Made by a program: the position numbers and the translations under genes. Positions 60,201-63,412 of a stretch of DNA of 64,000 nt are shown one piece after another; position 1 is the stretch's first letter, and every line of letters starts with the position of its first letter. The stretch lies in sequence record NC_050153.1. One strand, written 5' to 3'. The notes beneath the pieces are model-generated. The model was not told the origin of the DNA and searched no databases. It saw only the letters and a list, made by a program, of their open reading frames with translations. Source of the stretch: Escherichia phage vB_EcoM-Ro157c2YLVW.

Positions 60201-60485
60201 ATCTTTTGCGATCCGCCGTATGAACCGCTTCCAAATACAGAGGGATTCACGAACTATTCCGGTCATGACTTTAAGTTTGAAGAGCAAAAACGCCTGGTGT
60301 CTCTGTTGACGGATGCTCATCGTCGAGGTGCAAAGGTTCTCATTACTAACAGTGGCGCGCCAAACATCAGAGAGCTTTATCATGACAGTGGCTTCAGAGT
60401 GGAACCTCTTTTTGCCAGACGTTCTGTGTCTTGTAAGGGGGACACTCGAGGTGTAGCTCATGACGTTTTGGGTATATTGCTCTAA
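57198..60485 (+). CDS. dmt: Bifunctional DNA methyltransferase (N-terminal C5-cytosine domain, C-terminal N6-adenine domain) interrupted by an intein; 1095 aa precursor
   Basis: C5 motifs: GGTPC…QAFS (PCQ split by the insert), ENV (VIVWENVPG); N6A motifs FVGGGAV and DPPY (FCDPPYEP). Removing the 341-aa insert leaves 754 aa. Confidence 0.85.
57429..58451 (+). other. Intein with LAGLIDADG homing-endonuclease domain (341 aa) inside dmt
   Basis: Starts with Cys (CFTAGHMV…), block B TTNDHPF, two LAGLIDADG-type motifs ([21 protein letters not shown]), ends …ILNGAVVHN followed by extein Cys, which is the catalytic Cys of PCQ. Confidence 0.8.
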
Positions 60486-60492
60486 TAAATTT
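60476..60492. promoter_or_regulatory. C1-operator-like site, perfect consensus, overlapping the dmt stop codon
   Basis: attgctctaataaattt followed by a partial inverted copy (aaatttattag). Confidence 0.6.
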
Positions 60493-61157
60493 ATTAGTGT
60501 AATATCACCTCAATGAATCGTGATTTATAGAGCGATTTAGCTGTTAGCCGCGACAGGCGCGGCGGTAAGCATGGCTGGGCCTAGTCCTCCCAGACAAACC
60601 ACCGAGTTGCCAGGTTGACCATGCGCCTAAGTGGCAACGCCGAAGTGCGTTACGAGCGTCCAGTTTGCCCATCTTCGGGTGGGCGTTTTTTTCAGGGTTT
60701 TCGTCATGGTTAGCGACTTTGCGGCGGTTTAGAAACTGACCATTAAAGTAAATGCAAACGATGATCTGATGATGGTAGCGGCCTAAGAAGCCAGATGCCA
60801 TGGGGTATGAGTCGTCCCCCGTCAAAAAATCGACCGCAGAGTGTCCCCGTCTGTGTATTAGGGAACGGGGAGGCACAACAGGTAAGGGCGCTGGTGTGAT
60901 TAACCAGATGAACGAGAAGGGGCCATCTGTTGGTCAGCGTCCTTTCCTGTTGCGTTTTCTTTTCAGCGTAACAGCGGTGCTTAACAGCACTTTGGGTACA
61001 GTTCCACGAATTTACGGGTATATCCCGTCATGCTGAAGGCGCTAATCACGCTGGAAGCCAGGGTTATGCATCCCCTGTTACCGAATTGCAGCCAGGGCGC
61101 GGTGCGCCGAAAAGCATACGGAGGTGGAAGCCCTCGCCGGAGACGTACCCGGCAAGT

Positions 61158-61232
61158 GATGGTGTAGCTCAGCGGTAGAGCAGTTGGCTGTTAACCAACT
61201 GGTCGGTAGTTCGAATCCACCCACCATCGCCA
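61158..61232 (+). tRNA. tRNA-Asn (anticodon GTT)
   Basis: Cloverleaf with 7-bp acceptor GATGGTG/CACCATC, anticodon stem GTTGG/CCAAC, loop CTGTTAA, T-loop TTCGAAT, encoded CCA. Confidence 0.85.
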
Positions 61233-61237
61233 CTTTA

Positions 61238-61324
61238 GGGGAGTTAGTCCGTAGGGGTAGCGGGGTAGACTGTAAATCTACTGTCATTGCGACTCGGGTG
61301 GTTCGACTCCATCACTCCCCACCA
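61238..61324 (+). tRNA. tRNA-like gene, class II, reading as tRNA-Tyr (anticodon GTA), atypical D-arm
   Basis: Acceptor GGGGAGT/ACTCCCC, anticodon stem GTAGA/TCTAC with loop CTGTAAA, long variable arm with GTC/GAC stem, T-arm GGTGG-TTCGACT-CCATC, encoded CCA; the D-stem cannot be drawn canonically. Confidence 0.5.
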
Positions 61325-61328
61325 CATT

Positions 61329-61404
61329 GCCGATTTAGCTCAGTTGGTAGAGCAGTCGCTTTGTAAGCGAATGGTCAGCGGTTCGATCCCGTTAATCGGC
61401 ACCA
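61329..61404 (+). tRNA. tRNA-Thr (anticodon TGT)
   Basis: Acceptor GCCGATT/AATCGGC, D-arm GCTC-AGTTGGTA-GAGC, anticodon loop TTTGTAA, T-loop TTCGATC, encoded CCA. Confidence 0.85.
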
Positions 61405-62135
61405 ACATAACAGGTAAGAGCATTCTCCCTTATGGGGCCTGGCTTAAATGCATCGAGTGCTCTTACCGTTGTGATGAAGTGCAGATCTTAGAAGCAACCA
61501 GAAGATAAGCATCTGGCTTCACAACATAAACCGCAGGAACGACCAATAAACGGTAGTCCGTATGGAGAACACCCCGTTGAGGAAGAGGCCTGGCCGGAAC
61601 CGTAACCGGCGACTGGTAATGTGTGTAAATGGAGCGAAATATGTGGGCGTTTAACGGGATACGGGTTGTAACAGCGATTATTAACGGCGAACTTAAGTAT
61701 TCACGTTTCGAGACAAATGAACGTGATGGGAAATGTATTGGTGTGCGGTTAGTAAGAGAATACGCATAACAACTACAACGTTGAGAACACTGGCGTAACG
61801 GGGTCATATCCCAATCTACGAATAAATGTTGCGTTGCCGCGTGACAACCAGTGTTCTCAACATTGTGGTGAATGCACAGGCTGATGTGCCGCAACTACAG
61901 TAGTGCGCGCTTTGCGGGGCTTGCTACAACCCTGTGTCGGAGTTCAGCACCGACCATCACAGTTTGATTCTCTGGCATGAGCATAACGCTGAAATAAGTC
62001 CAGTCTGGTGCGGTCTGATCACCCGCCGTTAGCTCCACGAAACGGAGCACGTAACAGGTAAGAGCATTCTCCTGTAACAATCTACAGGTCCACCAAGAAT
62101 GCTCTTTCCGTTGCGGTGAATGCGGCTAAGCGCAC
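61405..62135 (+). repeat. Three copies of a conserved hairpin-plus-tail element in a largely non-coding stretch
   Basis: Copies at about 61405-61495, 61775-61885 and 62050-62135: long stems (ggtaagagcattct / agaatgctctt; gttgagaacactgg / ccagtgttctcaac), each followed by GTTGYGRTGAAKGC. Confidence 0.4.
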
Positions 62136-62264
62136 GCGGGGAAATGGTTATATCTGTCCATTATTTCTCCTTGTTTCCACGTCCACGGTGGATAACCAGC
62201 CAAAGGACACCGGGAGGAACCCGGCACCGCAGCTTTTTTATTCGTTAAATAATGGAGTGAGAGG

Positions 62265-62501
62265 ATGCAGAACAATCCGAACAAATGTCGAACGCTATGG
62301 GTGCGGTTATATATTTATGCCGTCCTCTGTTTGATTGTGTCACTGGTTCTGTATGTTTGGCTTTTGCCAAATATGATCTCATCTAACAGCACAATACTTG
62401 TATTGTTGGGAGTCCTTCTCGCGCTCATTTACCCGGCTTTCGCAGTAGTCTTTTTTCGTGAAAAAACCAGGAAATTAATTAATGAAAAAAACGTTGATTA
62501 G
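62265..62501 (+). CDS. Small integral membrane protein (78 aa)
   Basis: Two hydrophobic helices; overlaps start of the next gene. Confidence 0.4.
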   Translation: MQNNPNKCRTLWVRLYIYAVLCLIVSLVLYVWLLPNMISSNSTILVLLGVLLALIYPAFAVVFFREKTRKLINEKNVD

Positions 62502-63309
62502 TGCAGCGATTATTTTGGGTTCTTTATGTCTGACCGGATGCGATCGGGTAGAGCCAGGTAACGTAGGGATCAAAGTAAATAAGCTGGGGGATGATAAAGG
62601 TATCGGTGAAGTAGTTGGCGTTGGTCGCTACTGGACAGGCTTGAATACTGAAGTTTATATCTTCCCGACCTTTAAGCAAATGAAGACATACGATGAGCCG
62701 TTCAGCTTCCAGATGAGCGACGGAACAACCATTGGTTACCACATCGGCGTAGCCTACAAGGTTGATCCAGCAAAAGTCACAACGGTATTTCAGACCTATC
62801 GCAAAGGTGTAGATGATATTACTGATACCGATCTACGCCAGAAGGTTGCAGATGCTCTGAACCGATTAGCCAGCAAAATGACCACCGACAAATTTATCGA
62901 CGGTGGCAAATCTGAATTGCTTGATGCAGCCCTTAAAGACATTCAGGAAGAAATGACGCCAATCGGCATTCAGGTGATGAGCCTCTCTTATGTAGGTAAG
63001 CCAGAATACCCGCCAACAGTTATTGACAGTATTAACGCCAAAGTCACGGCAAACCAAAAAACCCTGCAACGCGAGCAAGAGGTCAAACAACGTGAAGCAG
63101 AGGCCAACATGCTGCGCGCGGAAGCTGCCGGACAGGCTGATGCTATTCGCACAAAAGCCCAGGCCGAAGCTGATGCCATTCGTTTACGTGGTGAAGCTCT
63201 GCGCCAGAACCCCGGTGTTATGGACTTGGAAGCGATCAACAAATGGAACGGTACATTACCGCAGTATATGACCAGTAATACCGCTGTTCCGTTTGTTCCG
63301 GTGAAATAA
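62482..63309 (+). CDS. SPFH/band-7-domain lipoprotein (275 aa)
   Basis: Lipoprotein signal MKKTLISAAIILGSLCLTGC; C-terminal Ala/Glu/Arg-rich coiled coil typical of stomatin/prohibitin-like proteins. Confidence 0.6.
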   Translation: MKKTLISAAIILGSLCLTGCDRVEPGNVGIKVNKLGDDKGIGEVVGVGRYWTGLNTEVYIFPTFKQMKTYDEPFSFQMSDGTTIGYHIGVAYKVDPAKVTTVFQTYRKGVDDITDTDLRQKVADALNRLASKMTTDKFIDGGKSELLDAALKDIQEEMTPIGIQVMSLSYVGKPEYPPTVIDSINAKVTANQKTLQREQEVKQREAEANMLRAEAAGQADAIRTKAQAEADAIRLRGEALRQNPGVMDLEAINKWNGTLPQYMTSNTAVPFVPVK

Positions 63310-63336: not shown

Positions 63337-63412
63337 GGCCCTTTAGCTCAGTGGTTAGAGCTGGCGACTCATAATCGCACGGTCACCGGTTCAAGTCCGG
63401 TAGGGGCCACCA
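63337..63412 (+). tRNA. tRNA with CAT anticodon, most like tRNA-Ile2 (lysidine type)
   Basis: GGCCCTT…AGGGGCC acceptor, anticodon loop CTCATAA, T-loop TTCAAGT; near-identical to E. coli ileX as recalled. Confidence 0.75.

Follow-up and report, generated by a model that had tools for sequence, protein, structure and literature searches.

A tRNA-Tyr gene of enterobacterial-phage type in the tRNA cassette of a P1-like phage-plasmid: conserved fold, patchy distribution and a putative counter-defence role

The element at positions 61,238 to 61,324 of the DNA analyzed here, a stretch of 64,000 nucleotides from Escherichia phage vB_EcoM-Ro157c2YLVW (NC_050153.1; hereafter the window), is, as judged from its sequence, a tRNA-Tyr(GUA) of enterobacterial-phage type, a member of the family that includes the T6, rV5-like, Felix O1-like and T5-like copies. 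The reading we prefer, with a probability of roughly 0.6, is that it is a functional phage-type tRNA-Tyr carried in a swappable cassette, where it replenishes the tRNA-Tyr pool against depletion of the PtuAB type. The parts of this reading do not all have the same standing. That the element is a genuine working tRNA-Tyr gene is, on the analyses below, very probable; that counter-defence rather than general tRNA supply is its main benefit is somewhat favored. As a tRNA-Tyr, the gene is already known by annotation, an ordinary accessory gene with a slightly unusual fold; no paper on the P1-like copy was found in the searchable literature.

ARAGORN calls four tRNA genes in the window, Asn(gtt), Tyr(gta), Thr(tgt) and "Met"(cat), all on the plus strand, and its tRNA-Tyr runs exactly from 61238 to 61324, which is where a preliminary description of this DNA had placed an 87-nt tRNA-like gene with anticodon GTA between tRNA-Asn and tRNA-Thr:

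61158..61232, + strand: tRNA-Asn(GUU), 5 nt upstream of Tyr (ARAGORN)
61238..61324, + strand: tRNA-Tyr(GUA), 87 nt, class II, CCA encoded (ARAGORN; RF00005; PGAP on the identical sequence)
61329..61404, + strand: tRNA-Thr(UGU), 4 nt downstream of Tyr (ARAGORN)
63337..63412, + strand: "Met"(cat) tRNA (ARAGORN)

The same description had offered two possibilities, a functional tRNA-Tyr or a tRNA-derived structure. In addition to the ARAGORN call, the Rfam tRNA model RF00005 matches 61238-61321 over its full length (model positions 1-71; cmscan) with 41.9 bits and E=1.1e-6, above the gathering score of 29 bits, and PGAP labels the identical sequence tRNA-Tyr, all in agreement with the first possibility. 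The three neighboring tRNAs score 65-70 bits with this model. The tRNA-Tyr falls about 25 bits lower because the model has to accommodate its long variable arm and an insertion of 2 nt ("gu") after position 9, ahead of the D-stem. It is this obligatory insertion that bears out the earlier remark that the D-arm is non-canonical. The "Met" label at 63337-63412 is probably the usual mislabeling of an Ile2 tRNA, the P1 homologue being annotated as trnI (tRNA-Ile2, CAU) and, according to the P1 annotation, 89% identical to E. coli ileX.

The cloverleaf of the tRNA-Tyr is laid out as follows:

61238..61244, + strand: 5' strand of the acceptor stem, GGGGAGU, pairing with ACUCCCC at 61314-61320 (sequence; covariation)
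61245..61248, + strand: 4-nt connector UAGU from acceptor stem to D-stem (cmscan insertion; family-wide UA+NN)
61249..61263, + strand: D-arm, CCGU at 61249-61252 with GCGG at 61260-61263 and the 7-nt loop AGGGGUA at 61253-61259 (covariation; MFE)
61265..61281, + strand: anticodon arm GUAGA-CUGUAAA-UCUAC, anticodon GTA at 61272-61274 (sequence; ARAGORN; covariation)
61282..61296, + strand: long variable region U-GUC-AUUGC-GAC-UCG, 15 nt (sequence; alignment)
61297..61313, + strand: T-arm GGUGG-UUCGACU-CCAUC with one G-U pair (sequence; covariation)
61321..61324, + strand: discriminator A73 followed by the encoded CCA (sequence)

The stems, the CTGTAAA loop, the long variable arm, the T-arm and the encoded CCA can all be read directly from the sequence, as they had been at first sight. 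The acceptor stem (GGGGAGU/ACUCCCC) consists of seven Watson-Crick pairs, with compensatory changes at six of the seven in the tRNA-Tyr family alignment; the anticodon stem (GUAGA/UCUAC) has five and closes the 7-nt loop CUGUAAA, with U33 and a purine at position 37; and the 3-bp stem of the variable arm holds across the family, 93.5-100% paired. The single-sequence MFE fold yields the shifted D-stem as well, and the thermodynamic significance of the fold is uninformative (z = -0.67). A fifth D-stem pair, U11-G27, can be drawn for the window allele; on inspection of the sequences it is not kept in rV5/T6 or in other P1-like alleles and was rejected.

The register of the D-arm was settled on an alignment of 23 distinct tRNA-Tyr sequences of the family, drawn from IMG/VR and GenBank phages; a first IMG/VR pattern scan had returned mostly unrelated tRNA-Tyr genes, which served as a background set only. 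With the D-stem shifted by 2 nt behind a 4-nt connector, 100% of its cells in the 23 sequences are paired and two of the four pairs show compensatory change, CCGU/GCGG being replaced by CUGU/GCAG, UCGU/GCGA or CCGU/ACGG. The canonical register (2-nt connector, positions 10-13 with 22-25) was rejected, since it pairs only 52% of the cells, includes one pair that never forms and shows no compensation. For the whole cloverleaf with the shifted D-stem, 98.2% of the cells are paired, with compensatory changes at 15 of the 24 pairs across the same sequences; none of 500 shuffles did as well, and slid controls came nowhere near. The 7-bp acceptor stem of the family fold is followed by a 4-nt connector UA+NN (one Epseptimavirus member, CitS1, has 5 nt), a 4-bp D-stem YYGU/RCRR and a 7-8-nt D-loop AGRGGUA. 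The window's tRNA-Tyr has every part of this pattern (UAGU, CCGU/GCGG and AGGGGUA, with GG in the D-loop) and departs from the canonical bacterial D-arm with its 2-nt connector, 3-bp stem with a 13-22 mismatch and large loop. The 2-nt connector is found in E. coli tRNA-Tyr and in about 88 unrelated phage tRNA-Tyr genes, and a 4-nt connector also occurs in about six unrelated genes from IMG/VR. On this alignment, the non-canonical D-arm is conserved as a trait of the family and does not point to decay. The family-wide extended connector, of which no description was found in the searchable literature, is a small structural curiosity that annotation pipelines tolerate.

From this perspective, it is unlikely that the gene is a non-functional or decaying passenger, a poor tRNA with an odd D-arm that came in with the tRNA-Asn allele by recombination from the tRNA array of a lytic phage. 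The D-arm is kept, with compensatory changes, across rV5-, T4-, T5-, Felix O1- and N4-type phages, and the same odd arm is present in tRNA-Tyr genes shown experimentally to work, those of T6 and SP15/T5. Moreover, the common P1-like alleles (24, 11, 9 and 8 loci) vary only in the loops or at position 26. What can be said for a passenger is that its Rfam score is the lowest in the tRNA cluster, that the cassette is clearly mosaic, and that there are rare P1-like alleles (1-2 loci each; L134/L169, L157/L177 and L130) in which the anticodon or acceptor stem is broken, so that selection is not absolute. Copies of this kind, in which the anticodon stem has one or two mismatches or the acceptor stem has an A-C mismatch, may be in decay or the product of recombination.

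The identity of the tRNA can be read with similar assurance. Bacterial TyrRS recognizes an identity set of A73, G34, U35/A36, G1-C72 and a long variable region, the last of which is required for bacterial tyrosylation (PMC6310243). All of these elements are present in the window's tRNA, G 61238 pairing with C 61320 and an A standing at 61321, and G1-C72 is invariant in the 23-sequence family alignment. In principle, the remodeled D-arm might have shifted identity, such that the tRNA is charged with Leu or Ser, or charged poorly, and Tyr codons are recoded or misread. In E. coli, the geometry of the D-arm is one of the features by which enzymes distinguish class II tRNAs from one another, and the connector and D-loop architecture is unlike that of E. 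coli tRNA-Tyr. Nevertheless, a change of identity is hard to credit, since A73, G34, U35, G1-C72 and the long variable arm all fit Tyr and since members of the family restore growth when tRNA-Tyr is depleted.

Within the family, the window's tRNA-Tyr is 93% identical to the rV5-like copy, 90% to that of T6, 82-83% to Tequintavirus copies and 78% to the SP15-type copy of CitS1. A homologue is present in 1,522 records of the phage collection, mostly annotated as tRNA-Tyr, with identities of 93% in Vequintavirus, 90-92% in Tequatrovirus, about 85% in Klebsiella T4-like phages, 80-83% in T5-like phages and 78% in Felixounavirus. The closest lytic-phage copy, that of the rV5-like phages (Vequintavirus, e.g. 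MT884008; 93%), has the same architecture but different neighbors, being flanked by Arg(tct) at 3-4 nt rather than by Asn, and without Thr directly after it. The T6 gene (Tequatrovirus, MH550421 66473-66559) is likewise 87 nt long, with the CCGU/GCGG D-stem, an identical variable arm and T-arm and an encoded CCA; it differs in its connector, UAUC against UAGU in the window (both 4 nt), and in its anticodon stem, GUGGA/UUCAU against GUAGA/UCUAC. T6 is lytic, and its gene lies in a tRNA-rich region beside the homing endonuclease gene segB, which amplifies tRNA-Tyr, whereas the gene in the window belongs to a temperate phage-plasmid and lies downstream of a C1-repressed promoter, without segB. 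In the T5/SP15 type, the CitS1 (Epseptimavirus) copy shares the extended connector and shifted D-stem, and its variable arm matches the published SP15 probe. The T5/SP15-type variable arm is different and longer (CGACUCGGAAGGGUCUCG), whereas that of the window is of the cleavable T6 type; the longer arm of T5 is reported to make T5 tRNA-Tyr resistant to cleavage (PMC13096335). Finally, E. coli tRNA-Tyr (tyrT/tyrU/tyrV), the 5' sequence of which is confirmed by a published probe (PMC11555353), is also class II, with anticodon GUA, the loop CUGUAAA, A73 and G1-C72, and with the same length 5' of the anticodon as the window and family genes. This length is divided differently: in E. coli the connector has 2 nt, the D-stem 3 bp plus G13-A22 and the D-loop 9 nt, and in the window these are 4 nt, 4 bp and 7 nt.

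A bolder reading of the D-arm is that the connector and the shifted, class-I-like arm are an adaptive remodeling, and that the whole is a swappable, C1-controlled anti-defence cassette taken from lytic phages onto P1-like phage-plasmids. The remodeled arm would then alter the presentation of the long variable arm, because its short D-loop is without 20a/20b, the positions that contact the variable arm in bacterial tRNA-Tyr. If this is true, contact with defence nucleases that target tRNA-Tyr could change while charging by TyrRS is kept. We consider this doubtful.

Turning to distribution, of 5,426 complete E. coli genomes 269 contain a 111-nt stretch centered on the Tyr gene, in every case on a plasmid, and PGAP labels those copies tRNA-Tyr, flanked by tRNA-Asn and tRNA-Thr. 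The P1-type ban leader, which directly precedes the cluster, is found in 475-562 genomes among complete E. coli, so that roughly half of the P1-like elements carry the Tyr gene (269). In PLSDB, 244 plasmids have it (Escherichia 230, Shigella 7, Salmonella 6), all but 2 of them (242) non-mobilizable, as expected for phage-plasmids. Chance can be excluded as the source of an element that hundreds of plasmids and 1,522 phage records have in common. Presence in only about half of the close P1-like elements is, moreover, as expected for an accessory trait whose value depends on the host.

P1 itself is among the elements without the gene. P1 (NC_005856) annotates trnA (Asn), trnT (Thr) and, further downstream, trnI (Ile), and P7 (AF503408) has the same layout; no tRNA-Tyr is annotated in either, and in the alignment of window, P1 and P7 there is a clean 92-column gap at its place. 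The preliminary description was correct in giving Asn, Thr and Ile as the only tRNAs of P1, and the Tyr gene is indeed extra, absent from P1 and P7 and from the reference P1 annotation. The slot is the same in all three, downstream of Pban/Oban and the dicF-like region and with both flanks homologous, and Asn and Thr are separated in P1/P7 by 2 nt (ARAGORN, P1 annotation; the P7 annotation leaves out the CCA and gives 5 nt). In one respect the earlier picture of a gene wedged in between its neighbors fails. Simple insertion into a P1 backbone is rejected and cassette exchange favored, since the flanking Asn allele also differs from that of P1 and the Thr alleles are shuffled. The window's tRNA-Asn is 88% identical to the P1/P7 allele, with differences in the D-loop, anticodon stem and T-arm; it is 95% identical to the Asn of an N4-like phage and is linked to Tyr in P1-like loci. 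The N4-like phage, too, has the layout Asn-5 nt-class II tRNA-4 nt-Thr, its class II tRNA being Ser(tga). The window's Thr is 89% identical to the P1 allele, and Thr alleles are shuffled among the Tyr-bearing relatives, P7's exact allele being found in 17 loci. The differing Asn allele and shuffled Thr alleles mean that the tRNA cassette is a recombination mosaic, and the P1/P7 set of Asn, Thr and Ile is one of several cassette variants, which corrects the impression given by the reference genomes.

Among 59 P1-like IMG/VR loci with Tyr, 47 have Asn-5-Tyr-4-Thr, 11 have Arg(tct)-5-Tyr-4-Thr and 1 runs off the contig end; in many P1-like loci from IMG/VR, Ser(tga) follows 195-650 nt downstream of Thr and is itself followed by Ile2 ("Met" cat). 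Elsewhere the gene order is Arg(tct)-3/4-Tyr in rV5-like phages and Tyr-segB-Arg(tct) in T6. The Ser(tga) of P1-like loci and P7 is 90% identical to the rV5-type (Vequintavirus) Ser(tga). Since the nearest lytic relatives of both Tyr (93%) and Ser (90%) are rV5-like alleles, sequence comparison suggests exchange between the tRNA arrays of lytic phages and the P1-like slot. Import of an Arg-Tyr pair as such from rV5-like phages or T6 was considered and rejected, because identity between the P1-like Arg(tct) and theirs is no higher than 65-71% and the P1-like gene instead has both ends in common with the P1-like Asn. This Arg(tct) gene (L044, L081, L126, L153, L171 and others) matches the P1-like Asn exactly in acceptor stem, T-arm and discriminator and differs from it only in the D-loop and anticodon arm; it looks like a remolded or chimeric tRNA gene. 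Two further tRNA calls are missing from the database records. In P7 (AF503408 about 72257-72343; L002:2359-2445), ARAGORN finds a tRNA-Ser(tga) that is not annotated in the P7 record, with identical or 98-99% identical copies in P1-like IMG/VR loci and none in the window or P1. In the Vequintavirus MT884008 (L005:1891-1989), it reports between Ser and Thr a 99-nt "tRNA-???" with a 4-base anticodon (atcc), a call made for further rV5-like loci too and absent from the annotation of MT884008.

Two features upstream of the cluster bear on its expression:

60476..60505, + strand: C1 operator Oban (ATTGCTCTAATAAATTT...), overlapping P1ban/P2ban (homology; alignment with annotated P1)
60666..60692, + strand: terminator-like hairpin with T-run that closes the dicF-like region at its 3' end and separates Pban from the tRNAs (sequence scan; P1 annotation)

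Oban and P1ban/P2ban are intact and identical to those of P1, and in the ban leader that they share, window, P1 and P7 are identical in 93% of the columns. By homology, the tRNA cluster would be part of the leader of the C1-repressed ban operon and would be switched on by induction or infection. No promoter close to the tRNA cluster came out of a strict sigma-70 scan, which also misses the annotated Pban. Given the hairpin at 60666-60692 and no closer promoter in the scan, either read-through or an unrecognized promoter is needed.

As to why such a gene is carried, the classical view of phage tRNAs is one of general supply: a working tRNA-Tyr would speed the synthesis of late proteins or offset the loss of host tRNAs, with no specific defence in play. 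Codon use in the window (44 ORFs, 17,025 codons) was compared with that in one 50-kb E. coli chromosomal sample (38 ORFs, 14,287 codons), the ORFs of both being called with a single crude caller. Against this host sample, the codons of the companion cassette tRNAs are enriched in the window, AGA (Arg-UCU) by 3.3x, ATA (Ile2-CAU) by 3.1x, ACA (Thr-UGU) by 2.8x, TCA (Ser-UGA) by 2.05x and AAT (Asn) by 1.6x, which fits general supply. Tyr codons (TAT + TAC, read by Tyr-GUA) are not, at 31.0 per 1000 in the window and 30.8 in the host sample, or 1.01x. Tyr is the one cassette tRNA without a codon-bias explanation, with the proviso that the host sample is small. Some ORFs of the window are Tyr-rich, up to 8.2%, which is again a point for supply; on the other side, close P1-like genomes differ in whether they carry the Tyr gene, and codon mismatch does not readily explain this. 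For these reasons, codon supply was set aside as the reason for the Tyr gene and kept as a lower-ranked alternative, one that is possible although less probable than counter-defence. The combination of no Tyr codon enrichment and patchy presence among close relatives would instead favor a host-dependent accessory role, such as counter-defence.

Such a role has been described for relatives of the gene. In Retron-Eco7, the PtuAB effector depletes tRNA-Tyr of the host, and the tRNA-Tyr of SP15/T5 rescues phage from this system; mutations in the anticodon or the stems abolish the rescue by SP15 tRNA-Tyr, and from the effect of the anticodon change the authors concluded that function in protein synthesis is required (PMC11555353). 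The T6 tRNA-Tyr is seen on Northern blots, and it rescues T6 from the Septu system EcB88 if it is overexpressed or if SegB amplifies it; the site at which Septu cleaves the T6 tRNA is C48, in the variable arm, and in E. coli tRNA-Tyr it is C48/A49 (PMC13096335). Purified PtuAB, however, did not cut tRNA-Tyr in vitro, so that depletion may come about indirectly (PMC12819146). The variable arm of the window's tRNA is identical to that of T6 (UGUCAUUGCGAC), with GUCAU at linear positions 46-50, as in E. coli by our own counting. Because the T6 arm is still cleaved, the window's tRNA should be cleavable, and any benefit would come from dosage or from action as a decoy, not from resistance.

The counter-defence reading would then run as follows. 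The Asn-5 nt-Tyr-4 nt-Thr array would be a swappable cassette that a P1-like phage-plasmid carries behind its C1-repressed ban promoter, and Tyr would be transcribed with its neighbors once C1 repression is lifted. The tRNA would be released by RNase P and 3' trimming, charged by the host TyrRS and used in translation, topping up the tRNA-Tyr pool in lytic growth when PtuAB-type defences (Septu, Retron-Eco7) deplete that of the host. Alternatively, decoding might not be primary at all, the gene acting mainly as an RNA decoy or sponge for a nuclease that targets tRNA-Tyr, or as a module for processing or for recombination. In favor of this, the gene still has the GUCAU cleavage motif, and tRNA genes are the recombination joints of the cassette. 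Both proposals seem to us very unlikely: a change of anticodon in SP15 abolished rescue, and all the TyrRS identity elements are conserved here. Replenishment by a charged, translating tRNA-Tyr stays our preferred reading, and the gene is a plausible, if putative, counter-defence marker in temperate phage-plasmids, elements that matter as vehicles of antibiotic-resistance and virulence genes.

Downstream of the cluster, several smaller features were noted in passing. Beyond tRNA-Thr, in a stretch with no convincing ORF, lies an inverted repeat (61772-61793 / 61848-61869) whose 22-nt arms are 54 nt apart and show 91% complementarity, and 62112-62231 gives a sub-threshold Rfam match to the sRNA STnc100 (38 bits against a gathering score of 47). 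The interval 62265-63309, between tRNA-Thr and the Ile2 tRNA, encodes a 78-aa hydrophobic ORF, possibly a membrane protein, and a 275-aa SPFH/Band 7 protein (Pfam PF01145, E=1e-30). P1 carries plp/upl and tciABC where the window has these ORFs, which marks this as a variable accessory region.
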